Source: a virus
Taxonomy: Duplodnaviria; Caudoviricetes
Virus record (IMG/VR): IMGVR_UViG_3300024344_000046
Span: 1 to 38,998 of that record
Length of the DNA: 38,998 nt
Reading direction: 5' to 3' (one strand)
How positions within the stretch are numbered: the first letter of the stretch is position 1; the number at the start of each line of letters is the position of its first letter. Both the position numbers and the translations under genes were made by a program. The notes beneath the pieces were generated by a model. It was not told the DNA's origin and searched no databases. It was given only the letters and a program-made list of their open reading frames with translations. Positions 1 through 15,286 of this stretch are shown one piece after another.

Positions 1-2
1 CG

Positions 3-557
3 AGTGAATCTGAGCTTACTGGAGACCTGTCAGACATGCAGGTCATGAGTGTGCAGAAGGTTTTGGCAAAATTCTGCAGAAGAATCTCTAACGTTCTGCC
101 AATCAACAGAGTGACAGTAGTTGGTATTACACATCTGATGGCTAATCTCCAGAGATTTGGTAGAGGAAAAGCCAAAGTAGAAAAGTCTGGCAGTGCGCTC
201 AAGTATCAAGTAGATGTAAAGCTACATGCAAGTCACTCAACTGCTCTTATGCAAGGAGACACACAAATAGGCCAAACGGTACATTGGCAAATTACAACAT
301 CTGCGATTGGGCCTCCGGGACAGAAAGTTGAAAGCCATATTAGATACGGTAAAGGTATCTGGAAAGAGATGGAGATGGCAGACCTAATGATAGACTTTGG
401 CCTAATTTCCAAAGCTGGAGCATGGCTTAAGCTGCCAAATGGAGAAAAGATTCAAGGTAAAGTCAATTTGGCAAAATACTTGGAAGAGAATCCAGAAGAG
501 TATAATAATTTTAGAAAAGAAGTTTTCGAGATGGTAGGGATTGATTATGAAAACTAA
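3..557 (+). CDS. recA: RecA/UvsX-like recombinase, C-terminal part (5' end lies outside the window)
   Basis: Frame is open from base 3 (SESELTGDLSDMQ...). The segments 'VTVVGITHLMAN', 'SGSALKYQVDVKL', 'IRYGKGI' and 'GLISKAGAW...IQGK' match the RecA C-terminal half. The Walker A motif is not in the window. Confidence 0.8.
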   Translation, partial: SESELTGDLSDMQVMSVQKVLAKFCRRISNVLPINRVTVVGITHLMANLQRFGRGKAKVEKSGSALKYQVDVKLHASHSTALMQGDTQIGQTVHWQITTSAIGPPGQKVESHIRYGKGIWKEMEMADLMIDFGLISKAGAWLKLPNGEKIQGKVNLAKYLEENPEEYNNFRKEVFEMVGIDYEN

Positions 558-927
558 AACCATTGATACTTACGAGTGTAGAGTGTACGTAGGATCTATA
601 TATGAGGATACTAAAGTTCCTTTTTATGAAAGGAATTTGACTAAATTTATTAGCGACTACCAAGATTCTGTAGATACTACAGTGCCGCTTAGAGTCACGA
701 AAACTGCGTTTGTTTGTGGCTCAAGCTATCTTGAAGATGGCTGGGAAATAGCAGCGATCAATTATCCAAGAGCAGGAACTGATATGGAAATTATAAAGGA
801 GTTCATGGAAGGGCTAGCGGAAGGGTTGCTTGAAAGGTTCTGTCAGAAAAGGGTAACCCTCGTAACCCCTCATGTGTCTGTTATGTATGAATCAGAGGCT
901 TCATATATGCCTCAAGCAGCAAGTTAG
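547..927 (+). CDS. Hypothetical phage protein (126 aa, 'E.GW.I..INYPR...LAE.L...F.Q.RV' motif)
   Basis: ATG at 547 overlaps the end of the recA ORF. The last ~10 codons and the TAG stop lie inside structured unit U1. Confidence 0.7.
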   Translation: MKTKTIDTYECRVYVGSIYEDTKVPFYERNLTKFISDYQDSVDTTVPLRVTKTAFVCGSSYLEDGWEIAAINYPRAGTDMEIIKEFMEGLAEGLLERFCQKRVTLVTPHVSVMYESEASYMPQAAS

Positions 928-1111
928 GCTTCTTGACTGCAAATATATGATTCATCAAAAGTCGGGGCCTCTAATCAGCCTCAGAAAGTAAGTTATCTCG
1001 TTCTTAACTTTAATGGTTAGTGTTTACAAAACGAGCAGGCTTCATTCACGCCTGAGCCAGTAGGTTTATAGCCCTTCCTAGCTGCGAAGTGAATGTGGAT
1101 ACAAAAGGGCT
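895..1111 (+). ncRNA. Upstream array of three tandem structured units (U1 895-963, U2 964-1035, U3 1036-1111), each a predicted double pseudoknot
   Basis: Each unit reads: 5-bp stem, 9-nt loop, stem', AA/AG, bulged 4+4 hairpin with a TT(T)A-starting loop, AA, complement of the 9-nt loop, 5-6 nt, CAAA(A), complement of the second loop. Pairings covary between units. Expression as RNA is inferred, not shown. Confidence 0.75.
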
Positions 1112-1147
1112 TTTTATCATTCAAAACTTATTTTAAGGATTAGAATT

Positions 1148-2380
1148 ATGATTAGGAACGCTAAGTTCTGGGGGCTTGAATATAGCGCTGAATTCTCAGA
1201 AATGTTGACCCTTACAAACTCTCTTCTAAACGAAATCTCAGAATGTGTTCGTGATGAAATATCCAATGGCTCGATTGTCAACATAAACTCCGTTGGTCTT
1301 GGTCAATATGTAGAGCTGAGCGATGGAAAGGAAGTCACACAGGCCGGATATAGAGATAGAATTAGATACATCTTAGACAAGTACCCTATTGTCGAAAAGC
1401 GGAAGGGGATAGAGAGGCAGCTAGTCGGCTATGTACTTGAGAGATTTGCTGGGTACTTCAAAAGGAATGGGGAGAAGATTCCTAGAATTACCTTTAAAAA
1501 CAAAAGCCTTTATAATAAGGACAGAAACGTAGAGATAGATAAGGAGAATAAGAGGCTTATCTTCCACACAGTATTTGGAGATTATAATGTTCCGTATAAA
1601 GGATCAATAAAGTCAGATTACATTGACTCTGGAAAGTTTGGAGGAAACTTAATTGTAAAACAAAAATGTTTTGTAGTTGCCGTAGATGTTCCTTTTGTAC
1701 AGCAGTATACGCCAGAGAAGGTTCTTGGCTTTGATATTAACAAGTCTTTGCATAATTGGATTGTTTTTAATACTGGTGACGTGATCCCAGCTCCTGATGT
1801 TGTATCAGATCTAATTGATAAAATTAGGAAGTTAAATAAGACTATAAATAACTCAAAAAAAGAAGGTCTCAGAACTTCCCAAAGAGGCGCTGTGCGAAGA
1901 CAAGTTATAAATAAACACAAGCAACTTCATGCGGAGATTAAGAAGGTTTGCGAAAAAATTGTTGATGTCGTCAAGGACAACAAGTCTTTATTATGCATAG
2001 ATATGGTCAAAACTGGTCAGAGCATGGGCACGTTTGGTCAAGATAAGATTATCCCTGAACTGCAAACTCTATGTGAAAATCAGGGAGTCCCATTCATTGC
2101 TGTTCCTTGCAAAAATACATCAAGGAGGTGCTCTTCTTGTGGATATGTCCATAAGGATAACAGAAAGACGGTAGACGAGTTTAAATGTCTAAAGTGCGGC
2201 CACGAGGAGCTGTCTCATCTTAACGCAGCAAAAAACATAGCTTTTCTTGGAAATAAAATGTTTGAGGCTGGTGTCCCATGTGGAAATCACGGTAGAATAT
2301 CTGTAGAGAAACTAATAGAAAGACACGGGTCTCATCAGCACCCGAAGCAGCATGTTATGACGTTCATGTCTGCAAGTTGA
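1148..2380 (+). CDS. tnpB: TnpB/Cas12f-like RNA-guided RuvC protein with non-canonical active site (410 aa)
   Basis: RuvC-I 'KVLGFDIN', a helical region, RuvC-II-like 'LLCIDMV', 'GVPFIAVPCKNTSRRCSSCG...FKCLKCG' zinc finger, and RuvC-III-like 'SHLNAAKNIA'. Size and domain order match the IS200/IS605 TnpB-Cas12f group. Confidence 0.88.
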   Translation: MIRNAKFWGLEYSAEFSEMLTLTNSLLNEISECVRDEISNGSIVNINSVGLGQYVELSDGKEVTQAGYRDRIRYILDKYPIVEKRKGIERQLVGYVLERFAGYFKRNGEKIPRITFKNKSLYNKDRNVEIDKENKRLIFHTVFGDYNVPYKGSIKSDYIDSGKFGGNLIVKQKCFVVAVDVPFVQQYTPEKVLGFDINKSLHNWIVFNTGDVIPAPDVVSDLIDKIRKLNKTINNSKKEGLRTSQRGAVRRQVINKHKQLHAEIKKVCEKIVDVVKDNKSLLCIDMVKTGQSMGTFGQDKIIPELQTLCENQGVPFIAVPCKNTSRRCSSCGYVHKDNRKTVDEFKCLKCGHEELSHLNAAKNIAFLGNKMFEAGVPCGNHGRISVEKLIERHGSHQHPKQHVMTFMSAS

Positions 2381-2469
2381 TGAATAAGCAAAACGTCGGG
2401 GTTCCAAGACCACCTCAAGCAGTATGTTACAGTCCTCATATCTGCAAGGTCTTGCTGTTTCAAAGGGCT
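2326..2469 (+). ncRNA. Downstream array of two tandem structured units (U4 2326-2397, U5 2398-2469), same fold as U1-U3
   Basis: U4: CGGGT/ACCCG, TCATCAGC/GTTGATGA, GCAG-CATG/CATG-T-CTGC, GACGTT/AACGTC. U5: GGGGT/ACCTC, CAAGACC/GGTCTTG, GCAG-TATG/CATA-T-CTGC, AGTCCT/AGGGCT. U4 overlaps the tnpB 3' end, where TnpB omega/reRNAs normally lie. Confidence 0.75.
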
Positions 2470-2480
2470 ATGGAGTTAAT

Positions 2481-2897
2481 ATGAAGATTAGAGATTTAAA
2501 CAATGAGATTCATACGTGGAGTCTAAGCGGCTACGTTGTAGCTGCGAACGAAATGCGTCCACGCTCCAAACTTCATCTAGCGGCAAGGGAACTGCTCATA
2601 CAGCTATTCCCTACCGTTCAGGTGATGGAAGAGGTGCTTGTCCCCCTGACAAGATATGAGAAGGGATATTTTGATTTTTATATAAACACTCTTAAGTTGG
2701 TTGTAGAAGTTCATGGACAACAACACTACAAATTTAACTCTCTATTCCACAGCTCTGCACAGGATTTTGTAAATCAGAAGAAAAAAGATCGGCGAAAGCA
2801 GGAGTGGTGCGAGTATAATAACATTACATACGTTGAGTTACCTTATAACGAGGATACAGATAAGTGGAAGCTGCGAATACAGCAAAGGAACGACTAG
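2481..2897 (+). CDS. Vsr/DUF559-like PD-(D/E)XK endonuclease
   Basis: 'FDFYINTLKLVVEVHGQQHY...D..K..WC..NNI.YVEL.Y' pattern. Start placed at ATG 2481 (GGAG at 2472-2475) rather than 2424, which lies inside U5. Confidence 0.75.
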   Translation: MKIRDLNNEIHTWSLSGYVVAANEMRPRSKLHLAARELLIQLFPTVQVMEEVLVPLTRYEKGYFDFYINTLKLVVEVHGQQHYKFNSLFHSSAQDFVNQKKKDRRKQEWCEYNNITYVELPYNEDTDKWKLRIQQRND

Positions 2898-3352
2898 AGC
2901 AAATTGACTCTGTACTGGACGAGTATGAGGGGAAGCTAGGCATAGGCGGCTACTCCGAAGACTTTCATGACCAGTCTGTGAAGAACTACATGTCGATGCC
3001 TAGACAACAGATGGAAAAGCTCACAGTAGAGGAGTGCGCAGAAGCAGCATTACTACTAGGCGGCTTCTCGTTCTATTTGCAAAGATCATACAATAGAGAG
3101 ATAGCTCGTGTAAACTGGGCCTCGTCTAACCTTAAGAAAATGGTATCTGGAAGAGAGTCGCAGTATAAAGGTTCTTGGGACAGCCAATACTATCAAGCTG
3201 TTAAAGAAGATGGATATGCTAAAAAACTGGATAGCATTAAGGTATATGCTCAACAGAGAGCAGACAGGCTAACTTACTTAGCTAGCTCAGTTAAAAACCT
3301 TAGTGACCTATACATTAACTTACAGAGAGCGAAGATAAATAGACATGGATAA
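2864..3352 (+). CDS. Hypothetical alpha-helical protein (possibly a UvsY-like recombination mediator)
   Basis: 162-aa helical/coiled-coil-like ORF that overlaps both neighbours. The function is guessed only from size and position between recA and the helicase. Confidence 0.5.
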   Translation: MEAANTAKERLEQIDSVLDEYEGKLGIGGYSEDFHDQSVKNYMSMPRQQMEKLTVEECAEAALLLGGFSFYLQRSYNREIARVNWASSNLKKMVSGRESQYKGSWDSQYYQAVKEDGYAKKLDSIKVYAQQRADRLTYLASSVKNLSDLYINLQRAKINRHG

Positions 3353-3740
3353 AGAAGAACTACAAAAACTGCTAAAACAGTTTAGCCAAGAAGAGATTCG
3401 AGAAGCTCTAGGCCAGAAGCCAAAGAATAAGAAGAGGCGAAGAGGCAAGGGTAAGAGAAAAAAGAACTCTCCTGCTGCTACCAACAAGAATGCTCCTGTT
3501 AATAAATTTGACGATATGATGCAGAGTATAAGCCTTACCGCAGATGAGAGAAAAGAGCTAGCCGATGCAGAAGCGTCTGACAAAATGGCAAAGCCAAATC
3601 CAAATAGAGGCAAGAGAAACGCTGTAAAGAAACAGAAATTTAGATGTGCCTCATGTGGGAAAGACTTTGAAATGTTTCCCTCACAAGTATACAATAGAGA
3701 AAGATGGAAGTGTAACCGTTGCGTAACAGGTGGCAGATAG
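3345..3740 (+). CDS. Basic hypothetical protein with C-terminal zinc ribbon
   Basis: Lys/Arg tract 'KPKNKKRRRGKGKRKK' and 'CASC...CNRC'. Confidence 0.7.
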   Translation: MDKEELQKLLKQFSQEEIREALGQKPKNKKRRRGKGKRKKNSPAATNKNAPVNKFDDMMQSISLTADERKELADAEASDKMAKPNPNRGKRNAVKKQKFRCASCGKDFEMFPSQVYNRERWKCNRCVTGGR

Positions 3741-5181
3741 TATGTTAAACGACTTACCAGCAGAAAGAGCTATACTAGCAGGCATATTTAGATATGGGGC
3801 TGAAGCTTATTACGATGTATCAGACATTATTAGCGAGTCGTCTTTCACGGATGAATCTAATGTAGTGCTGTATTCATGTATGAAGCATGTGCTTGAGATA
3901 GACGATTCTCGATCACTAGACGCACCAACAATGATGTCAGCGGCTAAAGAGCTGGGATTTTCAGACTTCTTCAATACGCAAGAAGTCCAACATATGTCTT
4001 CTGTCATAAAGTTTCCAGTGCTATTGGAAAACTTGAGAAAGTTTGCCGCTAAGGTTCGCAAGCTTGAAATAGCACGAATGATGTACGACCAGCTTGACAT
4101 AACCAAACAAAAGTACTTAGACATCAAGGGTGATGAACCCATAGCAAAAATACTTGGCATCGCTGAAGATGCCGTCATGGATGTGACCTCTGTTATTGCA
4201 GGAGAAGATGAGTCTCCAACACAGATGTTCGATGATGTTGAGGCACACCTAGAGGAGTTAGCAGAGGAGTCGGTCGATCAGATAGGCATATCTACAGGAT
4301 TCCCTAGATACGATTTTTCAATCGGAGGAGGGTTGAGAAAAGGTACAGTTAATGTTATTGGCGCTAGACCTAAGACTGGGAAAACTTTGCTTGCCGACAA
4401 TATGGGCATACATATTGCAAAAGAAGGAACTCCAGTATTGAATCTGGACACCGAGATGAGAAAGGAAGACCATCAACACAGGATGATGGCTATGTTGTCT
4501 GGTGTTCCAATTAATGACATTGAGACTGGAAAGTTTGCTGATGACCCAGCTAAGAAAAAGAAGGTCATGGAAGCAGCAAGAGAAATAAAGGATATTCCGT
4601 ATTACTTTAAGACTATTGGCGGCGCTTCATTTGAAGAGCAAGTTGCAATAATGAGAAGATGGATTAGTAGGGTTGTAGGATTAAATGATAAGGGTAAGGC
4701 AAACGATTGTGTTATTATATACGATTACCTTAAACTTATGGACTCAAGTGAAATCAAAGGAGATATGAAAGAATTTCAAATCCTTGGCTTCATGATAACA
4801 GCCCTACATAATCTGTCTCTTAAATACGAAGTACCTATACTTACTTTCATCCAATTGAATAGAGATGGCATAACAAAAGAGAGCACTGACACAGCTTCAG
4901 GCTCTGATAGAATCATATGGCTTTGCTCTAACTTCAGTATATATAAACATAAGTCTGATGAAGAGATAGCAAAAGATGGCCCTGAGAATGGAAACAGAAA
5001 GCTAGTGCCTCTGATTGCAAGGCATGGAGAAGGGCTTGATTATGGAGACTATATTAACGTAGAACTCACTGGCAAAATCGGTAAGGTTACTGAAGGAAAG
5101 ACTGCCTTTGAACTTGATAGTGGCGTAAGTGCTACAGAAGATGGAGAACTTTTTGATGACTCAGAAGATGTCGCATTCTAA
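3730..5181 (+). CDS. dnaB: DnaB-like replicative helicase
   Basis: N-terminal 'AERAILAGI', 'GISTGF', Walker A 'GARPKTGKT', 'LDTEM', 'IIYDYLKLM' and 'QLNR'. Confidence 0.93.
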   Translation: MADSMLNDLPAERAILAGIFRYGAEAYYDVSDIISESSFTDESNVVLYSCMKHVLEIDDSRSLDAPTMMSAAKELGFSDFFNTQEVQHMSSVIKFPVLLENLRKFAAKVRKLEIARMMYDQLDITKQKYLDIKGDEPIAKILGIAEDAVMDVTSVIAGEDESPTQMFDDVEAHLEELAEESVDQIGISTGFPRYDFSIGGGLRKGTVNVIGARPKTGKTLLADNMGIHIAKEGTPVLNLDTEMRKEDHQHRMMAMLSGVPINDIETGKFADDPAKKKKVMEAAREIKDIPYYFKTIGGASFEEQVAIMRRWISRVVGLNDKGKANDCVIIYDYLKLMDSSEIKGDMKEFQILGFMITALHNLSLKYEVPILTFIQLNRDGITKESTDTASGSDRIIWLCSNFSIYKHKSDEEIAKDGPENGNRKLVPLIARHGEGLDYGDYINVELTGKIGKVTEGKTAFELDSGVSATEDGELFDDSEDVAF

Positions 5182-6307
5182 AAAATATGATTATGCTAAG
5201 GTTAGAACTCTAGCAAAAATTGCAGGACAATACATAGACCAAATATATCAATATTTTGGACTTAGTATCTCTTATAGGAATGATATTCTTATGAAGTCTG
5301 TATGTCCTATACATGGAGGAGACAATCCAACCGCTTTGAACTTTTATCCGAACGGAGAGTTTAAGGTACACTATAAATGCAGAACCCATCAATGCGAAGA
5401 AGTGTTTGGCAATGGGATGATAGATCTAGTCAGAGGGATTCTATCTAGAGTTAATTATGGATGGGAAAAGGAAGGAGATAAGGAGGCTACTTTTAAGGAG
5501 TCTGTTGATTTCTTACTCAAGTTTCTTAAAAAGGACTTTGACTCACTCGAAGCTGATAATCATAATGTAGAAAAACTCCACTTCAACAACTTAGTGAATA
5601 CGCTTAGCTCTGAAGCTGCTAAGAAAAGCGGCATAACTCAGCAAATGTATCGAGACCGAGTGGAAGTTCCGTGCAAGTACTATCTAGACAGGGGGTTTTC
5701 TGCCAAGATTTTAGAGGACTACGACGTTGGCTATTGTACTAATCCAAGAAAGCCTATGTATCAAAGAGCAGTAGTTCCTATTTATGATAATAATCATGAA
5801 TTTATTGTTGGCTGCACAGGCAGAAGCATATTTGACAAATGTCCTAAATGCAATAACTATCATGACCCTAAAGAAAAATGTAGACATTTTCCAAAATGGA
5901 TGCACAGCAAGGGGTTCCAAAAAGAGAAATGGCTGTATAATTATTGGGTAGCCAAAGATGAGATTGCCAAGACAGGAGTTGCTATCCTTGTTGAGTCTCC
6001 CGGAAATGTATGGAGACTAGCAGAGGCAGGAATACACAACGTCGTTGCTATATTTGGAACAGCGTTCAACAACGATCAGAAAAACTTACTGGATGAGTCT
6101 GGCGCTTTATCATTAGTCTGCTTAATGGATAATGATGATGCTGGGCAAAAAGCAGCCAAGAAGATAGAAGAACAATGTGGAAGATTGTATAGGCTTTACT
6201 TCCCAAGTTTTGATGCAGCAGACATTGCAGAACTAAATGTTGATACGGTCACATCCGACATTAAACCCTTTATTGAAAATGCTATGAATATATATAAGGA
6301 AATTTGA
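5168..6307 (+). CDS. dnaG: DnaG-like DNA primase
   Basis: CHC2 zinc finger 'CPIHGGDNPT...YKCRTHQC', 'YYLDRGFS', 'RAVVPI...GRSI', and TOPRIM 'LVESPGNV...MDNDDAGQKA'. ATG at 5168 is preferred over the 5129 start. Confidence 0.9.
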   Translation: MSHSKKYDYAKVRTLAKIAGQYIDQIYQYFGLSISYRNDILMKSVCPIHGGDNPTALNFYPNGEFKVHYKCRTHQCEEVFGNGMIDLVRGILSRVNYGWEKEGDKEATFKESVDFLLKFLKKDFDSLEADNHNVEKLHFNNLVNTLSSEAAKKSGITQQMYRDRVEVPCKYYLDRGFSAKILEDYDVGYCTNPRKPMYQRAVVPIYDNNHEFIVGCTGRSIFDKCPKCNNYHDPKEKCRHFPKWMHSKGFQKEKWLYNYWVAKDEIAKTGVAILVESPGNVWRLAEAGIHNVVAIFGTAFNNDQKNLLDESGALSLVCLMDNDDAGQKAAKKIEEQCGRLYRLYFPSFDAADIAELNVDTVTSDIKPFIENAMNIYKEI

Positions 6308-6529
6308 ATGAGCTCTTATAAAGAAAATGCGATAGACTACCTTTACAATAAGGCCTTCTCTGATAGAGACAAGGCATTGGCATCGCTTTCGATTTTACTA
6401 GATCACCCAGCTGGAATCGGAGATCACTCTACAGGTGATCTTTATGAAAACCTTGATGAGGCTCTTAGCACATTAGCTGACGCAGAAGATAGAATAGAAA
6501 TTTTAGAACAATATTATAGTAGGGATTAG
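6308..6529 (+). CDS. Small helical phage protein ('PAGIGDH' motif)
   Basis: 73-aa ORF that exactly fills the gap between the primase and kinase genes. Confidence 0.7.
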   Translation: MSSYKENAIDYLYNKAFSDRDKALASLSILLDHPAGIGDHSTGDLYENLDEALSTLADAEDRIEILEQYYSRD

Positions 6530-6530
6530 T

Positions 6531-7307
6531 ATGACTCAAATATTAGGATTTGCCGGCAAGAAGCAAAGTGGTAAAAATACTGCTTGCAACTACATAGTCG
6601 CGCTGAAGATAGCTGAACTTGGCATTAGTAAGTCTACTAGACTATCTGAAAGAGGAGAGATAGAGGTAACAGATATCTTTGGAGAAAAGAAAGATGGAAA
6701 AGAATGGTTTGAATTCAGTGAAAAGAATCTGAATGTAAAAAAGCTTTTCGATGACAGTCTGGGATCATTTATTAAAATATATGGCCTTGCTGACACACTA
6801 AAAGATCTCTGTATAGACATACTTGGCTTAGAGTACGGTCAAGCATACGGAACAGATGAGCAAAAGAACTCTCCTACAGATCTATATTGGGGAGATATAC
6901 CTTATAGAGATGCAAAAAATAATATTAAAAGTAAGAAAATGACAGCTAGAGAGGTCTTACAGTATGTCGGAACAGACATATTTAGGACACTTGATCCAGA
7001 CATCTGGATAAAAAGCTTACTAAGAAAAATCAAGAAAGATAATCCTGAAGTAGCACTAGTCTGCGACGTGAGGTTTGAGAATGAGATTGTCAAGCTTCAA
7101 GAAGCAGGTGGATTTATAGTAGGATTGACTAGAGATCCATATGAAAAATCTGATACTCACTCTAGTGAGAAAGAGATAGAAGGTTGCCTTAACCTTTGTG
7201 ATGCTGTTGTTGACAATAAGGATATTACTGTAGCAAAGCAAATAAAAATGATTGGTGATGCTATCAGTCACTTACCCAATGTAGTACCTATAATGGAGCA
7301 ACAATGA
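6531..7307 (+). CDS. Deoxynucleoside monophosphate kinase (phage type)
   Basis: N-terminal P-loop 'GFAGKKQSGKNT', 'ADTLKD', 'TAREVLQYVGTDIFR', 'DVRFENE' and 'HSSE'. Confidence 0.88.
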   Translation: MTQILGFAGKKQSGKNTACNYIVALKIAELGISKSTRLSERGEIEVTDIFGEKKDGKEWFEFSEKNLNVKKLFDDSLGSFIKIYGLADTLKDLCIDILGLEYGQAYGTDEQKNSPTDLYWGDIPYRDAKNNIKSKKMTAREVLQYVGTDIFRTLDPDIWIKSLLRKIKKDNPEVALVCDVRFENEIVKLQEAGGFIVGLTRDPYEKSDTHSSEKEIEGCLNLCDAVVDNKDITVAKQIKMIGDAISHLPNVVPIMEQQ

Positions 7308-8341
7308 GCATACCTATCGTATACTTTAGAAGCAGTTCTTTCAACTCTCATAGAATGTGTCCCATGCAATATTACATGGAGTACAACTTAGGCTGGAGGG
7401 GCGCTTCTGGAAAGAAAGCGGATAAAGGAACTATTGTTCATAAGGTTCTTGAGCTGTGCGCCCTTGCAAAGAAAGCGCTGCAGGATGGTCATGCAGTTTT
7501 TGAAGATCATGAAATTGGAGAGATAGAAACTTCTAACTACGACCCAGAATATCTAGATCAAATTATTGATACAGTATATGAATATTACACTTCTAGAACT
7601 ACACATCATGATTGGAAACCTCTAGACTTGAAGCATTGCCGGAAATGGGTCTGGAAAATATTTGATGATGACGATGGCTTTTTTGATCCTAAGAATAGAA
7701 ATGTTGTGGAAGCTGAGCCGCACTTTGATTTTGAAATAGAAGAAGACTGGGCCAAGTACGAGTATGAGCTTTCTGATGGAAGTATATTGAAAGGCCATCT
7801 AGCACTAAAGGGTACTATTGACTTAATCACCGACGTTGGCGATGGAGTCTATGAGATAATTGACTGGAAGACTGGGAGAAGGCTTGACTGGGCTACAGGA
7901 AAAGAGAAGACTCATGCTAAGCTAGAAAAAGACCCTCAGCTTAGAATGTACCATCTAGCTTGTAAGAAGCTATATCCTCATGTAGAAACCTTCTTAGTGA
8001 CTATTCATTTTATGAATGATGGCGGTCCTTTTACTCTACACTTTCAAGATAGCGATATACCTGAGACTTTGGAAATGATAAGGGCTAAGTTTGAAAAAAT
8101 AAAAGATACTAACATGCCCGAACTTAGGAAGTCTTGGAAATGCTCAAAGCTGTGTTCTGCTGGCAAGACCACCTATGAAGGCACGCATGTAGATCCGATG
8201 TATAATATGTTCGGTGCAGCTCTTACAAAGTGCGAACAAACAAAAACAATGATAAAGGAAAACGGTATTGAGTGGGTAACAGGGAACTGTATGGCTCCAG
8301 ATCACACAATAGGCAAGTATAAGGCTCCCGGCGAAGTATGA
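7304..8341 (+). CDS. Cas4/RecB-like PD-(D/E)XK exonuclease
   Basis: 'CPMQYY', 'GTIVHKVLE', 'GTIDL', 'IIDWKTG', 'QLRMYHLA', and C-terminal cysteines ('KCSKLC') consistent with an Fe-S site. Confidence 0.85.
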   Translation: MSIPIVYFRSSSFNSHRMCPMQYYMEYNLGWRGASGKKADKGTIVHKVLELCALAKKALQDGHAVFEDHEIGEIETSNYDPEYLDQIIDTVYEYYTSRTTHHDWKPLDLKHCRKWVWKIFDDDDGFFDPKNRNVVEAEPHFDFEIEEDWAKYEYELSDGSILKGHLALKGTIDLITDVGDGVYEIIDWKTGRRLDWATGKEKTHAKLEKDPQLRMYHLACKKLYPHVETFLVTIHFMNDGGPFTLHFQDSDIPETLEMIRAKFEKIKDTNMPELRKSWKCSKLCSAGKTTYEGTHVDPMYNMFGAALTKCEQTKTMIKENGIEWVTGNCMAPDHTIGKYKAPGEV

Positions 8342-8883
8342 TAAAACTACCTTTTGATGACGCTATGATAGAGAGAGCTAGAGAGAAGGCAATGTCTCTA
8401 GGCTCTATTAATAACTCTATACTTAGAGGCGGTGGAAATATAGCCGGCTACTTAGGAGAAGAGGCTTTAGCTCCTTATGTTAACGCAGACATCGTTAGTA
8501 ACAATAGGGGCTTGGATAAATACAATCATGACCTTCTTCTAGAATGTGGACATAGACTTGAGGTAAAGACAAAGAGAAGAACAGTCTCTCCGAGACCACA
8601 TTATGATGTATCAATAGCCGAAACAAGCAAGCATCAGAAACCAGACCTATATGGCTTTATAAGCTTAGAGTTTGACAGATGCACCAAAAGTCATCCTAAA
8701 AAATACTATGGCCTAAAAAACATATGGTTGTGCGGCTTTATGGGATCTTTTGAGTACTGGGAAAGAGCTTCTCTCTGGGAAAGTGGGAGAATAGATAAAA
8801 CAAATAGCTTCAAGACTCATGTTAACATGTATAATTTACCTATAAGAGAACTATACGATACCATTTGGGAATTGACAAGATGA
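8338..8883 (+). CDS. Hypothetical protein with restriction-endonuclease-like PD-(D/E)XK motifs
   Basis: 'GYLGEEAL...HDLLLECGHRLEVKTK' gives the E...D...ExK arrangement. Confidence 0.6.
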   Translation: MIKLPFDDAMIERAREKAMSLGSINNSILRGGGNIAGYLGEEALAPYVNADIVSNNRGLDKYNHDLLLECGHRLEVKTKRRTVSPRPHYDVSIAETSKHQKPDLYGFISLEFDRCTKSHPKKYYGLKNIWLCGFMGSFEYWERASLWESGRIDKTNSFKTHVNMYNLPIRELYDTIWELTR

Positions 8884-10757
8884 AATACGTGCCGCTACAT
8901 GTCCATAGCGAATATTCACTTTTAGATGGACTGTCACAAACAAAACATATTGCAAAGAGACTAGAAGAGATAGAAGTTGATGCTTGTGCATTGACAGATC
9001 ACGGTACGGTAAGCGGAGCGATTGACTTCCATAAGACCATATCCAACGGCTTCAAGCCAATCCTTGGATGTGAGTTCTATGTCAGCAATAGAGATGCGAC
9101 GATCAAAGAGCCAGATAACTCGAAGCTTGCACACCAAGTTGTTATCGCAAAAGATTTGAAGGGATGGAAGAACCTACTTTCGATGGTATCAATATCCAAC
9201 AAGGTAGACCACTTTTATCATAAGCCTAGAGTTGGCGTCGATTACTTCATGGAGCTTGCATCAAAAGCAGATGGCTCTCTCGTCTCATTCAGTGGTCATC
9301 TAGGGTCTCGTCTCGCAAACGCTGTGGTAGATAACCCAAACTGGCAAAGTGATGGAATCAGAGAAGCAGAAAGGCTGCAAGACGCATTTGGCAAGGGCAA
9401 TTTCTATATAGAAATCCAGTTGATAGACTCTCTTATAAATGAAAAAGCAAAAGAAGTTGCCCAAAAGCTAAGGGAAATTTCTAATCTTACTAAAATTCCT
9501 TGTGTAGCAACGCCAGATGCGCACTACTGTAGACGTGAAGATGCCCATGACCAGAGAGTGTTACTATGTACATCTATGAGAAAGAGCATCGGACAAGTTC
9601 AATCTGAGCTTAAGCAGGGCAAGTCTCGTTCTCTAGGAACATTCTTTAATTCAAACAACTATCACATTCCTAGCTATGAAGACATGAGAGAGTTCCACAC
9701 TGAGGAGGAACTACAGCACACAATCGACATAGCTAACATGTGTACACAGTACGACATTCTAGGACCTCCAAATCCGCCGGTATTTGCTTGTCCGAACGGT
9801 ATGTCTCCGAATGATTATCTAAGGGAGCTGTGTAGAGAAGGATGGTCTAGCAAGATGAGCCATGTCGAAAAGGGTTCTCTATTTAGTGAGTATGGAGATA
9901 GAGTCAATAAAGAAATTAAAATTTTTACTGAAACTAACCTGTCAAGTTACTTCTTAATTGTTAGGGATATCTTAAAGTATGCTGAGTCAAGAGGATATCT
10001 CACAGGGCCGGGAAGAGGTAGTGCTGCTGGATGTATGGTTTCTTACCTTATGGACATTACAAAGATTGATCCAATGCCGCATGACTTAATCTTTGAAAGA
10101 TTCTATAATGCTGGACGTAATGCTGGCGGAAGAGTATCAATGCCTGATATTGATATTGACGTACCTAAACAATCAAGAAATGATATTATAGACTACATCA
10201 AGCAAAAGTATGGTGAAGACAATGTAGCTCAGATTGTTACATTCCAAACTCTCAAGGGTCGTGCTGCACTAAAAAGAGTTATGGCAGCTAGAGGAAACAT
10301 TGGTTTTAGTGAGCAGAATGCTATAACGTCTCATATTCTAGATGAAGCAAAAATTTCGGATGAGTTACAGGACATGAAGGATGAGCTAGGAACTGCATCT
10401 GTGATAACTTGGGCTCTTGAGAACAAGAAGGACAAACTCAAAGAGTGGTGTTATGTAGATGATAATGGCAATTTGCAAGGTAAGTTTGCTAAGATCTTTG
10501 AGCAAGCAATTAGGTTGGAAGACACGAAGATTATTCAATCTAAGCATGCAGCTGGCGTTGTAGTATCTCCTCAGCCGATATATGATGTTTGCCCAATGGT
10601 CATAGACAAAGAGGGAAAAGGGCAACTAGCAGGCTTTGAAGGACCATCATGCGAAGATGCTGGACTTCTTAAGCTAGACGTTTTGGGAATTAAAATGCTA
10701 GATAAGATTATGGAAATGCCAGAAATTATAAAGAATACTTATAAGGTACAAGTATAA
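8880..10757 (+). CDS. dnaE: DNA polymerase III alpha subunit, N-terminal half (PHP + palm)
   Basis: 'LHVHSEYSLLDG', 'ALTDHG', 'PILGCE', 'TPDAHY', 'GPGRGSAAG', 'FERF', 'MPDIDID', 'HAAGVV' and 'GLLKLDVLG'. The ORF stops shortly after the last motif. ATG at 8880 overlaps the upstream stop (ATGA). Confidence 0.93.
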   Translation: MKYVPLHVHSEYSLLDGLSQTKHIAKRLEEIEVDACALTDHGTVSGAIDFHKTISNGFKPILGCEFYVSNRDATIKEPDNSKLAHQVVIAKDLKGWKNLLSMVSISNKVDHFYHKPRVGVDYFMELASKADGSLVSFSGHLGSRLANAVVDNPNWQSDGIREAERLQDAFGKGNFYIEIQLIDSLINEKAKEVAQKLREISNLTKIPCVATPDAHYCRREDAHDQRVLLCTSMRKSIGQVQSELKQGKSRSLGTFFNSNNYHIPSYEDMREFHTEEELQHTIDIANMCTQYDILGPPNPPVFACPNGMSPNDYLRELCREGWSSKMSHVEKGSLFSEYGDRVNKEIKIFTETNLSSYFLIVRDILKYAESRGYLTGPGRGSAAGCMVSYLMDITKIDPMPHDLIFERFYNAGRNAGGRVSMPDIDIDVPKQSRNDIIDYIKQKYGEDNVAQIVTFQTLKGRAALKRVMAARGNIGFSEQNAITSHILDEAKISDELQDMKDELGTASVITWALENKKDKLKEWCYVDDNGNLQGKFAKIFEQAIRLEDTKIIQSKHAAGVVVSPQPIYDVCPMVIDKEGKGQLAGFEGPSCEDAGLLKLDVLGIKMLDKIMEMPEIIKNTYKVQV

Positions 10758-10758
10758 T

Positions 10759-10875
10759 ATGGTAGTATGGAAATACTGTGAAGTTTGTGGTAAAGTTGTA
10801 GATGAGTATCAAAAACGATGCTCTGAATGTAGCGCTGAAATAGATTGGGAAGAAAAAGAAGATGATAAACAATAG
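10759..10875 (+). CDS. 38-aa zinc-ribbon microprotein (absent from the ORF track)
   Basis: MVVWKYCEVCGKVVDEYQKRCSECSAEIDWEEKEDDKQ*, with CxxC-x10-CxxC. It starts 1 nt after the dnaE-N stop and overlaps the next gene. Confidence 0.7.
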   Translation: MVVWKYCEVCGKVVDEYQKRCSECSAEIDWEEKEDDKQ

Positions 10876-11539
10876 ATGGATTATAGTGTTTGACCTAGAA
10901 ACCGATGGGACTGATCCGTATAGTTGTAATCCTGTTGAGCTTGCGGCTGTCCCTGTTGATCCCAGAACATTAGAGATCAAAGAGGCACAGGCTTTTAGGG
11001 TCACAATCAAGCCAGACGGTATTGATGACGAGGAGTACTTTACAAAGGCTCGTCAAGACACAATCGCTTGGCATGCTAAAACAAGAGGTGTTGAATCGGA
11101 AGACATCATAGAGGATTGGAAGAATGGGCAGACTGAGAAAGTTGCTTGGAAGAACTTTATGTCTTATTGTTCTAAGTATGAGGTAGATAAGAGGCCGGGA
11201 CAATGGTACACTGAACCTATCCCTGCTGGATACAATATCATTGGCTTTGATCTACCTATTCTAAAAAGGTTATCAGAAAAACACAAGACTAAGATGCCTC
11301 TATCCACAGTCACAAAAATTGATATGATGGATATTCTTTTTACTTGGTTTGAAAATCTAGATGAGCCCAACAGTATGAAGCTTGATACTTTTAGGGACTT
11401 CTTTGGATTAAAGGCAAGTGCTCAAGCACACGAAGCTCTATCAGATACAATTGACGAAGCTAAACTGATGGTTAAGTTTTTAAAGTTTCATAGAAAACAA
11501 GCAAGTGTAAGTAAATTTAAAGGTGCGTTTAGCAAATGA
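10862..11539 (+). CDS. dnaQ: DEDDh 3'-5' exonuclease (DnaQ/epsilon-like)
   Basis: ExoI 'IVFDLETDG', ExoII 'GYNIIGFDLPIL' and ExoIII 'AHEALSD'. Confidence 0.85.
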   Translation: MINNRWIIVFDLETDGTDPYSCNPVELAAVPVDPRTLEIKEAQAFRVTIKPDGIDDEEYFTKARQDTIAWHAKTRGVESEDIIEDWKNGQTEKVAWKNFMSYCSKYEVDKRPGQWYTEPIPAGYNIIGFDLPILKRLSEKHKTKMPLSTVTKIDMMDILFTWFENLDEPNSMKLDTFRDFFGLKASAQAHEALSDTIDEAKLMVKFLKFHRKQASVSKFKGAFSK

Positions 11540-13173
11540 TAAATCTAGATTGCGGATGTCAGTTTGAACAAGACGATGAAGGTAGGATTATCTTCGGCAC
11601 TGACATAACAAAAATGAATATGGACTGCCCTAAAACTTGGGACTTAATATGCGAAGGAAATACGAAAGGTGTCTTTCAGCTTGAGTCTCAGCTTGGAAGA
11701 TCTCTAGCAAAGCAAGCTAAACCAAGAAACATCGAAGAGCTGTCAGACCTAATCGCTATTATGCGTCCGGGATGTCTTGAGGCTGTAGTCAAAGGAAAGA
11801 CTCTTACGATGCACTATATCGACAGGAAGCACAAGGTTGACGCTGTCGAGTACTTCCATGAAGCTTTAGAGCCGATTCTTAAGAGCACTTACGGCATTCT
11901 TGTCTTCCAAGAACAAGCTATTCTTATTGCACAGCAAATAGCTGGCTTTGACTTGCAGGAAGCTGATATCCTTCGTAAGGCAATCGGTAAGAAGAAGGCT
12001 AGTGTCATGGCAGAAGTCAAGAAGTCTTTCATAGAAAAGTCTGAGGCAAAAGGTATTGTCACTAGAGAGGAAGCTGAGGAGATATTCTCTTGGATTGAAA
12101 AGTCTCAAAGATATTCTTTTAATAAATCTCATTCTGTCAGCTATGCCTATAATGCATATCTCACAGCATATGCTAAAGCTCACTTCCCACATGAATTCTT
12201 TACTTCTTACCTAAAGCATGCAGTTGGAAAGCCAGACACATTTATTGAAGTTCAAGAACTTGTTAACAACGCAAAGATAATGGGCATCAACACAATGCCT
12301 CCTAGTATTATTCACATGAATGAAGAGTTCGAGCTTATTGAACAACATCCAAGATATGGTCTTACAAACGTAAAAGGAGTGGGTTCATCTGTATTTAAAA
12401 AGATGGTGAATTACATGGAGACTGAGGGAATAGATCCTAAAGCCTGCGACTGGTCTTGCTTTTTGATCTTAGTATCCCCCAAGGTTAATAAGAAGGCCTT
12501 TGAGAGCCTCATACTAGCCGGAGCGTTCGATTGTTTTAAAATTCCTAGATCTAAGATGCAGCATAATTTTAATGTAATTAAAGAGTTTAGCAAGAGGGAG
12601 ATCTCTTGGTTAATTGATTATAAAAAACAGAACTACGAGCTGAGCACAGAGCAATGTATACAGGCTATGATAGATGCATCTCAAGGCAAAGATAAGAATA
12701 GACCAATCTTTAGAAGAGACAGATGTCCTATCGTTGAAGACTTGCTTCGATCATACAATGATCCCGGATATGAACTATTTGATTCTGCGTCTTGGCTTGC
12801 GAAACAAGAACAAGAACTGCTTGGTATAGCTTTAACATGCAACAAAGTAGATGAGTACAATACAGATAGGGCTAACTGCACCTGTAAGGAGTTTATTGAC
12901 GGCTTCGAAAGTCAGTATGGCCCTGTGATAGCAGTCCAGATAGAATCTGTAAGAGAATGGAAGATCAAGAAAGGGAAGGCCAAAGGCAAGAGTATGGGGT
13001 TCATAACAGCTGGTGATACTAGCTGTATCCTAGACAACATTACTGCCTTCTCTGATGAATGGGAAAAGTATAAGAACTTGCTCTACGAAGGCAACACTGT
13101 TCTTCTAAGAGGAAGCAGAGACAAAAATAGAGGAAGTTTTTTGGTAAAAAGAGTTGAACAGCTAACAAGTTAG
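11536..13173 (+). CDS. dnaE: DNA polymerase III alpha subunit, C-terminal half (fingers, HhH, OB fold)
   Basis: 'GNTKGVFQLES', 'AIMRPG', 'TYGILVFQEQ', 'ADILRKAIGKK', 'YSFNKSHSVSY', 'YGLTNVKGVG', 'LILAGAFD' and an OB-like C-terminus. Confidence 0.93.
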   Translation: MINLDCGCQFEQDDEGRIIFGTDITKMNMDCPKTWDLICEGNTKGVFQLESQLGRSLAKQAKPRNIEELSDLIAIMRPGCLEAVVKGKTLTMHYIDRKHKVDAVEYFHEALEPILKSTYGILVFQEQAILIAQQIAGFDLQEADILRKAIGKKKASVMAEVKKSFIEKSEAKGIVTREEAEEIFSWIEKSQRYSFNKSHSVSYAYNAYLTAYAKAHFPHEFFTSYLKHAVGKPDTFIEVQELVNNAKIMGINTMPPSIIHMNEEFELIEQHPRYGLTNVKGVGSSVFKKMVNYMETEGIDPKACDWSCFLILVSPKVNKKAFESLILAGAFDCFKIPRSKMQHNFNVIKEFSKREISWLIDYKKQNYELSTEQCIQAMIDASQGKDKNRPIFRRDRCPIVEDLLRSYNDPGYELFDSASWLAKQEQELLGIALTCNKVDEYNTDRANCTCKEFIDGFESQYGPVIAVQIESVREWKIKKGKAKGKSMGFITAGDTSCILDNITAFSDEWEKYKNLLYEGNTVLLRGSRDKNRGSFLVKRVEQLTS

Positions 13174-13200: not shown

Positions 13201-13647
13201 ATGGATGATTTAATAGAAAAGAACATGGGACTTGTTGTCTCTGTTGTGAACTCTTTCAATCCTAAGAGTAACACAGAGAAGGAAGATTATATACAAGCTG
13301 GCAGGATAGGACTTTGGAAAGCTCTAGAAAAGCATGATCCAGAGAAATCAGCTCTGTCTACCTTTGCTTGGAATCCGATACGATGGGAAATAATCAAGGA
13401 AATAAAAGCGATTAAATCTAATAGATATTTTTCTATCTCAGATGAAAAAACTCCTTACTATATTACTAAGGATACCCTTTGGGAACATTGTCCTGACAGC
13501 CTTTCTGTAGAGGAATCTGAGCTAATAGATCTTAGGAAAATGGGATATACTCTACAAGAAATAGCTGACATATTGGGTAGAGGAAGATCCTATGTTAAAA
13601 GAGTCGTATATCGTGCTATACAAAAGATAAGAGAGTGTAATGAGTAA
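13201..13647 (+). CDS. Small sigma-70-family factor (regions 2 and 4)
   Basis: Region 2 'LIEKNMGLV...EDYIQAGRIGLWKALEKHDP...STFA' and region 4 HTH 'GYTLQEIADILG'. Confidence 0.85.
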   Translation: MDDLIEKNMGLVVSVVNSFNPKSNTEKEDYIQAGRIGLWKALEKHDPEKSALSTFAWNPIRWEIIKEIKAIKSNRYFSISDEKTPYYITKDTLWEHCPDSLSVEESELIDLRKMGYTLQEIADILGRGRSYVKRVVYRAIQKIRECNE

Positions 13648-15286
13648 GAAAAGAGTATTATTTGTTAGTGAGTCTCATCACTTGGCATCTGGGTTTGGAA
13701 CATATGCTAAGCAGGTTCTACCCAGACTAGCAGCGACCAATAAATATCATCTTGCTGAATTCGCGTCCTACGGAGATATTAATAGAATAGGGGACGTTCC
13801 TTGGGACTACTACAGCAACACCCCAATCACAGAAGAAGAAAAGAATCTATATAATAGCCAGCAAGCAAATGCGTTTGGCATATGGAGATTCAATAGAGTA
13901 GTGTTGGACTTTAAGCCTGACATCGTTCTAACCTATAGAGATCCTTGGATGGACGAGTGGATAAAAGAGTCTCCTCTAAGAAAGTACTTCCATTGGCTAT
14001 GGATGCCTACTGTTGACTCTTACCCCCAGAAGAGAAAATGGCTAGAGACATTCAAGTCGTGCGATGCTGTACTAGCATACTCGGAGTTTGGGGAAAAAGT
14101 GCTAGACAGGCAATCTGGAGGAACGATTAATACAATAGGTTGTGCCTCTCCAGCGATAGATCCAAAAGTCTACAAGCCCGTACAAGACAAGAAGAAGCAT
14201 AAGTCGTCGTATGGACTTCCTGAAGATTGCTTTATAACTGGCACAGTTATGAGAAATCAGACGCGGAAACTCTTCATAGAGCTTATGAAATCTTTTAGAA
14301 TGTTTCTAGACAATGCTCCGAAAGAGATAGCAGAGAAATCATTTTTATATCTGCACACAAGCTATCCAGAAAAGGGCGGCTGGGATATAGAAGATGGAAT
14401 AATGAGCAATGGACTTTCTAATAATGTCCTTTGCACGTATGTTTGCAGGGGATGTTCTCACTGGGAGCCGTCTAGATATAAAGGTCCAGTGAAAAAATGT
14501 AGCAAATGCGGACAAAGAAATGCATTCATGCCCAATGTTGGTCACGGGATAAGCATAGAGGAGCTCATAAATGTATACAATTTATTTGACCTATATGTAC
14601 AGTATGCTATCTGTGAAGGGTTTGGTATGCCACAAGTGGAGGCAGCTTGCTGCGGAGTCCCTGTAGCAGCTGTTGACTACAGCGCTATGGAAGACGTTGT
14701 GAGACATACTAATGGATATCCTATAAGAATTAAAAAGATGTTTAGGGAGCTCAATACTAACGCAGAGAGAGCTTATCCAGACAACGAGCACTTGGCAGAG
14801 ATATTACAACATCATTTTTCTCATGATGACAACTATAGAAAAGAGAGGTCTTCTCAGGCTAGGGAAGGAGCAATGAGAAGATATGACTGGGATGCAACAG
14901 CTAAAGTATGGGAAAATTATATAGACTCTTATAAGCCTATAGCAGAGCAAGGAAAGTGGGATCTGCCTATAGAGCAGTCAGATATTCCTGATCAAATTCC
15001 TCAAGGAATGTCTTACGAACACTTTGTAAAATGGTGCTTTGCAGAGCTAATAAGAAGCCCAGAAAGAGTTAACTCATATGATGCACAAAAATACCTTGCT
15101 AGCCTAGACTTTGGATGCTTTATAGATGGATCATATGGGCCTCAATTAGAACCATTCAATGTTGATATTATGTTTAATATATTCAAGACAAGAGCTCAAG
15201 ACAAAAATATACTAGAACAGCTGAGGACAGGTGTCTTGGAAGCTGCCCCAATGACATTCTTGAAAAAAGGAAGAATGGATGATTAA
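13640..15286 (+). CDS. GT4-family (GT-B) glycosyltransferase
   Basis: 'RVLFVSE...SGFG', 'KPDIV', 'VMRNQTRK', and the signature 'EGFGMPQVEAACCGVPV', followed by 'RYDWD..A..W'. Confidence 0.9.
   Translation: MSKKRVLFVSESHHLASGFGTYAKQVLPRLAATNKYHLAEFASYGDINRIGDVPWDYYSNTPITEEEKNLYNSQQANAFGIWRFNRVVLDFKPDIVLTYRDPWMDEWIKESPLRKYFHWLWMPTVDSYPQKRKWLETFKSCDAVLAYSEFGEKVLDRQSGGTINTIGCASPAIDPKVYKPVQDKKKHKSSYGLPEDCFITGTVMRNQTRKLFIELMKSFRMFLDNAPKEIAEKSFLYLHTSYPEKGGWDIEDGIMSNGLSNNVLCTYVCRGCSHWEPSRYKGPVKKCSKCGQRNAFMPNVGHGISIEELINVYNLFDLYVQYAICEGFGMPQVEAACCGVPVAAVDYSAMEDVVRHTNGYPIRIKKMFRELNTNAERAYPDNEHLAEILQHHFSHDDNYRKERSSQAREGAMRRYDWDATAKVWENYIDSYKPIAEQGKWDLPIEQSDIPDQIPQGMSYEHFVKWCFAELIRSPERVNSYDAQKYLASLDFGCFIDGSYGPQLEPFNVDIMFNIFKTRAQDKNILEQLRTGVLEAAPMTFLKKGRMDD

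Follow-up and report, generated by a model that had tools for sequence, protein, structure and literature searches.

In this work, a TnpB-like gene of a marine phage (Duplodnaviria; Caudoviricetes) was found to have repeated structured RNA units on either side, each holding a strictly six-nucleotide segment, and the DNA of this phage was depleted of sites spelled by its own hexamers behind a short motif. We consider it rather likely that the effector and its units form an RNA-programmed, restriction-like DNA nuclease that recognizes the motif together with the hexamer (8–9 bp). The locus apparently belongs to an undescribed hexamer-guided system. The window, i.e., the whole stretch of DNA analyzed, is 38,998 nt long, and the features of the locus are as follows.

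902..963, + strand: RNA unit 1, hexamer at 950-955
971..1035, + strand: RNA unit 2, hexamer at 1021-1026
1043..1111, + strand: RNA unit 3, hexamer at 1096-1101
1148..2380, + strand: effector with predicted TnpB/Cas12f fold, 410 aa, C4 zinc finger, RuvC residues D196/D285/H357
1733..1735, + strand: D196, RuvC-I Asp, codon GAT (150/150 representatives)
2000..2002, + strand: D285, Asp at the RuvC-II Glu position, codon GAT (149/150)
2042..2044, + strand: D299 in the family motif GTFGQD, candidate fourth acid or helix cap (D/E in 127/150)
2216..2218, + strand: H357, RuvC-III position, codon CAT (H 62, D 61, Q 24 of 150)
2333..2397, + strand: RNA unit 4, hexamer at 2383-2388; overlaps the ORF at its 3' end
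2405..2469, + strand: RNA unit 5, hexamer at 2455-2460
L311:880-952, − strand: sixth, stand-alone unit of the window phage, ~0.9 kb upstream of window position 1

The effector gene and its RuvC positions

The ORF runs without interruption over 410 aa. The AlphaFold model of its product (mean pLDDT 88) has TnpB and Cas12f as best matches, with a Z score of 17.0 against 8h1j (rmsd 7.6, 333 aligned residues) and 16.9 against 8dzj (rmsd 8.2, 346 aligned). The top Foldseek matches are Cas12f proteins (9I8Y, 9NZS, 8DZJ), and the Pfam match is Cas12f1-like_TNB. The NCBIfam model guided_TnpB gives the effector 66 bits, which is below its cut-off of 100, and in the Atlas the protein falls among viral 'hypothetical' clusters. 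All four zinc-finger Cys are present, and they are kept in 146–148 of the 150 representatives described below. The TnpB-like identity, the intact zinc finger, and the uninterrupted ORF of the original prediction were thus all borne out.

The same prediction had read the RuvC triad as D/D/H in place of the canonical D/E/D, and residues 196, 285, and 357 are indeed D, D, and H (codons GAT, GAT, and CAT). By sequence/profile alignment, these residues appear to sit where TnpB and Cas12f have D, E, and D. D196 lies opposite the 'GVD' of the canonical D/E/D protein P0061, D285 opposite its RuvC-II Glu region ('IQLEEL'), and H357 opposite the RuvC-III Asp of Cas12f ('NADFNAS/NADYNAA'), in agreement with the predicted loss of the catalytic Glu and the predicted His at the RuvC-III Asp position. 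In the model, D196 and D285 are placed at strand ends, and H357 opens the last long helix. Residue counts were taken over the best 150 of 190 family representatives (50% identity, E 1e-30). D196 is present in 150 and D285 in 149 of them (61/61 and 60/61 in a smaller set of homologues), and position 357 is occupied by H in 62, D in 61, Q in 24, and G in 2, with one gap. Of D285 and H357, the former is conserved among homologues and the latter is not, and His as a family signature was ruled out. As many as 86 of the 88 substitutions of D at position 357 are H or Q, and a rough FastTree tree requires at least 12 changes between D and non-D. The motif GTFGQD stands after D285, and its residue 299 is D or E in 127/150. 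Among near relatives, the RuvC/zinc-finger part (residues 281–375) is 91–96% identical, compared with 40–63% at the N-terminus (residues 1–60). The D/D RuvC core is thus a family-wide trait, and the third position exchanges D, H, and Q repeatedly. Since the E-to-D change is fixed in 149/150 homologues, the D/D/H pattern is not decay; recent decay of this copy alone, with close homologues retaining E/D, was not seen and is ruled out.

An Asp after the fourth strand and a His in the last helix also form the arrangement of Argonautes, which we take to be equivalent by position to that of the effector. Active Argonaute tetrads are D/E/D/H or D/E/D/D in the accessible part of one report (PMC10772731). 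A TnpB branch with a RuvC-III D-to-H change is described in the available sections of the PNAS 2023 TnpB census, which also contain virus-enriched rearranged branches and name RIIr-4, a viral branch whose RuvC-II is altered, once with no motif given; RIIr-4 is absent from one of its supplementary files (PMC10691335). On the other hand, the accessible part of another study states that any change of the TnpB DED motif abolishes cutting (bioRxiv 2023.11.30.569447).

The window belongs to a large phage with recA, helicase, primase, polymerase, and tape measure genes, and the effector gene lies in the replication module, with recA on one side and the helicase/primase genes on the other. Its site between recA and a DUF559-like gene is fixed in relatives down to 32% identity, and in more distant phages recA adjoins the DUF559-like gene with nothing in between. 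At this one site, the phages L035, L036, L037, and L041 carry alleles that are just 32–35% identical (45% for the L041 fragment) and have their own downstream scaffolds, and their neighboring genes are 82–92% identical between phages. No transposase occurs among the neighbor genes of the effector, and the search of prokaryotic genomes gave one match in 80 candidate stretches, a 3.4-kb MAG contig. The effector gene is domesticated and viral.

RNA units with a hypervariable hexamer

Five units of ~65 nt accompany the effector gene in the window, three upstream and two downstream. They share one plan: a 7–8-bp closing stem (P1), an inner stem (P2), a G, six unpaired bases, CAA, and finally a strand pairing back into the P2 loop. 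The scaffold is thus pseudoknotted and closes on both sides of the strictly 6-nt segment. The + strand was fixed because of G-U pairs in the units. A pairing-based finder made 442 unit calls in 213 kb of flanks vs 2 in 134 kb of ORF interior, and it located units at 109 of 132 related loci, which are nearly all viral and partly redundant, with no unit call at the other 23. The D/D/D members L117, L120, L122, L124, and G027 (L268) have no recognizable unit in their flanks, and other distant D/D/D members were read by eye as having different scaffolds with the same 6-nt slot. The 6-nt register fits 280 of 297 distinct units, and each hexamer position carries 1.90–2.01 bits. Covariation was measured on 61 units selected by pairing (the window's five and 56 chosen for diversity from 195). 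In this set, 92% of the cells of P1, P2, and the pseudoknot are paired, the covariation is 0.82 compared with 0.19 after shuffling, and both sides have changed in 16 of the 17 pairs. The pseudoknot is also kept in 64 matches to a pseudoknot-free model, some of which are training members (88.7% paired, 0.68 vs 0.16). These clamped 6-nt guide units are the defining feature of the locus, and they had been missed in the original prediction.

Rfam gave no match beyond E 3.4 for window positions 700–2700. A search for a CRISPR array by repeats (positions 1–9000) and by model (whole window) returned the five units alone, and a scan for sigma-70 promoters and terminators stayed at chance level. One RNA run yielded three 151-nt contigs of depth 2–3 that are uninformative on transcription, and the 216-nt skip seen there coincides with a DNA deletion in L052, a 99%-identical strain. 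This strain has lost the three upstream units (window 918–1135), and the deletion recurs in a contig of run X20.

Units were observed in other arrangements as well. At L050 (5370–5600), a single scaffold precedes a mini-array built of ~26-nt units; every unit holds a 6-nt spacer and the pseudoknot strand, which is a CRISPR-like split of the same RNA. In the flanks of L028-L033 and in the genomes G002, G003, G008, and G010, units are, by eye, interleaved with tRNA-like genes and also lie dispersed one by one, tens of kb away from the protein gene. G022 (L305, L306) has five units and no protein match in 97 kb, in a record estimated to be 61% complete.

The hexamers change far faster than four-fold (neutral) sites. 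In the 17 closest of 259 pairs, which are not independent, identity is 0.97 at the four-fold sites of the downstream gene vs 0.46 in the hexamers, and where four-fold identity is 0.81 the hexamer identity is 0.33, i.e., near random. In contigs of two runs that are 95–99% like the window, 4/6 and 5/6 of the changes fall inside hexamers, and the scaffolds are nearly unchanged. Among units 1–5 of the near clade, at least five hexamers recur in differing unit slots of differing phages, and certain alleles look displaced by one or two bases. Masking of restriction sites was ruled out as the role of the hexamers, with four palindromes among 281 hexamers vs ~4 expected.

Avoidance of motif and hexamer in the encoding genomes

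If a motif followed by the hexamer is harmful, the encoding genome should be without such sites. A family-wide target motif was ruled out, as the pooled test of 12 genomes and 65 hexamers showed no depletion and the motifs vary by genome. In a genome-by-genome scan, 5 of 19 genomes reached 25/1,000 or better, i.e., 3/8 of those with D at position 357, 2/6 with H, and 0/4 with Q; G022, whose type is unknown, did not. Many of these 19 genomes have just 100–200 hexamer matches. The scan omits G004 and G007 (one and two hexamers), G018 and G020 (two hexamers each, 8–9 hits), G019 (units same as in G015), G027 (in which no unit was recognized), G021, and one doubtful hexamer of G009.

The strongest depletion was found in the complete D/D/D genome G026 (204,906 bp), where GC followed by the hexamer occurs 0 times vs 31.8 expected for seven of the eight units, with zero on each strand, and 0 of 100,000 random sets give seven zeros in eight at that expectation. 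The result depends on setting aside the exception unit, which has a divergent scaffold and for which eight GC sites were counted vs 3.9 expected. Single-mismatch sites are near expectation (513 vs 600 over six positions), and the GC+hexamer sites of this genome occur at the expected rate in eight other genomes. A replication fixed in advance failed as written (43/100 for six G026 hexamers, 58/100 for three G024 hexamers); the zeros of G026 include both units outside the six-hexamer list fixed beforehand. In the D/D/D genome G010, AGn with the hexamer occurs 7 times vs 30.2 expected, for full 6/6 matches only, and G at −2 was seen 40 times vs 86.3 expected (0/5,500 random sets).

For the window phage, the test covered 61 kb (the window, its G001 extension, and L311) and 11 hexamers, namely six of its own and five from the 99%-identical strains L002 and L052. 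AGT with the hexamer occurs 0 times vs 9.4 expected on both strands (4/10,000 random sets), and the looser ASK 7 times vs 28.1 expected (10/10,000), which corresponds to about p 0.01–0.02 when 20 tests are allowed for. The motif picked on the five strain alleles holds for the six own hexamers (3 vs 13.0 expected, p 0.001); a motif scan with the six own hexamers alone was not significant (137/1,000). Neither mismatched or reversed hexamers nor 38 hexamers of relatives (82 vs 88) are depleted in the window phage, and five related phages contain 21 AGT sites for its hexamers vs 22.7 expected. The other near-clade genomes, which had been held out, lend weak support for ASK (28 vs 41.6, p 0.017) and none for AGK (21 vs 24.6, p 0.27). 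Thus, the 5' motif of the window protein is probably AGT, loosely ASK, which together with the hexamer makes ~9 bp.

In the His-type genome G025, WnC occurs 0 times vs 11.1 expected (14/1,000) after the register had been moved one base post hoc, which makes the prediction that this genome shows nothing doubtful. The complete Gln-type genome G002, with 450 hexamer matches, shows no depletion for motifs up to 3 nt. Candidate motifs of G002, G003, G005, G006, and G012 failed with the hexamers of relatives, and a motif 3' of the hexamer was not significant in any of 18 genomes (best 58/500). The depletion lies 5' of the hexamer, is confined to full six-base matches, and is found on either strand, which is what the logic of TnpB predicts for a guide cut down to its seed. 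The hexamers are very probably DNA-targeting guides, and because the own DNA is depleted of the sites they spell, the system probably works as a restriction enzyme programmed by RNA.

Proposed mechanism, alternatives, and known systems

We hypothesize that each unit is transcribed as a ~65-nt RNA and bound by the effector, which would read the motif, open the DNA, and let the six guide bases pair with it. The metals may then be held by D196, D285, and H357 in a geometry resembling that of RNase H and Argonaute, and the DNA would be cut; that the His variant of the window phage is able to cut seems to us reasonably likely. Self would be spared through the absence of sites in the own genome and not through modification, and any site-bearing DNA in the cell (co-infecting relatives, plasmids, the host chromosome) would be cut. 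We would give even chances to rival phages being the main target, in which case phage–phage competition could keep the guides changing. Because sites are absent in self and present elsewhere, a small divergence would make relatives cuttable and favor new guides and motif specificities, and such selection fits both the fast N-terminus and the allele swaps. No Cas1-Cas2 would be needed for new guides, since point mutation can arrive at any of the 4096 hexamers. In its broadest form, the proposal is that of a virus-specific class in which a TnpB-fold D/D/(D,H,Q) nuclease with clamped hexamer guides, reprogrammed by mutation alone, cuts co-infecting relatives and has its own genome purged of the 8–9-bp sites, with L050 as an independent start of a CRISPR-like array of 6-nt spacers; the case for and against this class is evenly balanced.

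The original prediction left the choice between a dead RNA-guided binder and a nuclease of altered chemistry. The latter is favored because of the two invariant Asp, the conserved RuvC/zinc-finger part, the D/H/Q exchange, and the self-avoidance in the His-type window phage; the binder is the less favored of the two. It would mean that the His and Gln variants are dead or weak DNA binders that use the same guides and motif as roadblocks or repressors similar to TldR, and that only D/D/D members cut. Two of three triad positions are changed, which satisfies the TldR screening rule (at least two changes in the DED motif), and a motif with a seed of ~6 nt is enough for TldR binding, both according to the accessible part of the same study (bioRxiv 2023.11.30.569447). 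Tight binding alone could produce avoidance, which is seen in 0/4 Gln-type and only 2/6 His-type genomes. However, D196 and D285 are invariant (150/150 and 149/150), the zinc finger and the RuvC-III helix are retained, D is replaced by H or Q in 86/88 cases, and neither strand of the His-type window phage contains an AGT site, so we regard such a binder as unlikely. Fragmentation of the host chromosome or plasmids during infection, by an active hexamer-guided nuclease that does not chiefly fight phages, would suit the position of the gene within the replication module, where recA and the helicase/primase genes surround it, and by arithmetic a bacterial chromosome should contain an 8–9-bp site tens of times for each guide. 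Such a target is quite improbable as the chief one, as it leaves the 32–35% allele swaps and the change of hexamers beyond the pace of four-fold sites unexplained, because any hexamer would serve against a chromosome.

Cleavage of RNA has even less in its favor. The D/D/H triad resembles the chemistry of RNase H and Argonaute, and arrayed units would need processing, yet the depletion depends on a motif located 5' of the hexamer and is present on both DNA strands, and the 3' flanks are without signal in 18 genomes. It is therefore very improbable that the effector is an RNase for processing or binding its own units or that the hexamers address RNA targets, and the processing of an own RNA array suggested in the original prediction gained no support from any test. 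Finally, the gene could be a decaying TnpB next to neutral repeats, with hexamers as unconstrained loops and depletions by chance. This would agree with the lack of significant depletion in 14/19 genomes and with the loss of three upstream units in a 99%-identical strain, but it has to face the invariant Asp pair, the strict segment length, hexamers that outrun neutral sites, and the G026 pattern that 0/100,000 random sets match, and it seems to us hardly credible.

The restriction-like nuclease that we prefer has several known counterparts. The TnpB of IS200/IS605 with its omegaRNA (ISDra2 8H1J, ISFba1 8IAZ) is of like size and has the same WED-REC-RuvC-zinc-finger fold, an RNA unit that overlaps the ORF at its 3' end, a scaffold with a pseudoknot, and a 5' target-adjacent motif, which for our effector is read from self-avoidance only. 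Unlike this TnpB, which has D/E/D, the family here has D/D/(D,H,Q), and the effector has a fixed genomic site and no neighboring transposase. Instead of a single omegaRNA with a free 3' guide, there are several units per genome with an internal 6-nt segment closed 3' by the pseudoknot strand. TnpB guides are about 15–20 nt long. Cas12f (type V-F) shares the best Foldseek matches, the Pfam domain Cas12f1-like_TNB, and a RuvC-III context of the NA(D)xNAA type, but the locus here is without a CRISPR repeat-spacer array or a separate tracrRNA, and the equivalent of its spacer is 6 nt; the distant member L050, with a scaffold and a mini-array of 6-nt spacers, differs in this respect from the other loci. 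TldR and sigma-associated dCas12f are likewise non-mobile TnpB derivatives with two triad changes (E-to-D and D-to-H in our case). In contrast to the decay of TldR, with its deteriorated site and often lost zinc finger or RuvC-III, the effector keeps two Asp and four Cys, and whereas TldR guides are fixed on a promoter, the guides here are hypervariable and their target sites are purged from the own genome.

TIGR-Tas and VIPR, as far as the accessible parts of their reports describe them, are also virus-encoded, with arrayed short internal variable segments and no acquisition genes nearby. The former has a Nop-domain protein, places two 9-nt spacers in each 36-nt unit, and uses no motif (PMC12045711), and the latter a RAMP-related protein, Vipr, with alternating GGY/NN, proposed to act against competing phages (10.64898/2026.04.26.720920). 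The protein here is different from both, and it would use one contiguous hexamer with a putative protein-read motif. A survey whose available text states that only intact DED proteins near CRISPR arrays were kept (bioRxiv 2026.03.27.714800) also belongs to this background. In the literature searched, which left most subscription papers and the bioRxiv supplements outside its scope, no description of such a hexamer-guided TnpB-like system was found.

Type II restriction endonucleases have a short specificity and find many sites in foreign DNA. In comparison, the specificity here would be set by RNA, and self-protection appears to be the absence of sites and not methylation. If the proposal is true, no natural RNA guide for DNA found in the literature searched is shorter than the hexamer, and purging of the own sites, with no methylase and no spacer acquisition, is a third route to self/non-self discrimination. 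It would also mean that a TnpB scaffold can cut with Asp at RuvC-II and His at RuvC-III, and thus that screens relying on the DED motif wrongly count active enzymes as dead. A programmable 8–9-bp cutter would serve as a reagent. The prediction is directly testable with an RNA of ~65 nt and the 410-aa protein, with AGT/ASK as the motif for the window protein and GC for the G026 protein.

Three other regions of the window drew attention. At 8865–13173, a DNA polymerase III alpha-like enzyme is split over two ORFs that enclose an exonuclease gene; at 13201–15286, a phage sigma factor and a glycosyltransferase are followed by a row of unannotated ORFs; and at 24588–25181, an ORF of 1317 aa contains an internal duplication of ~309 bp with 95% identity.
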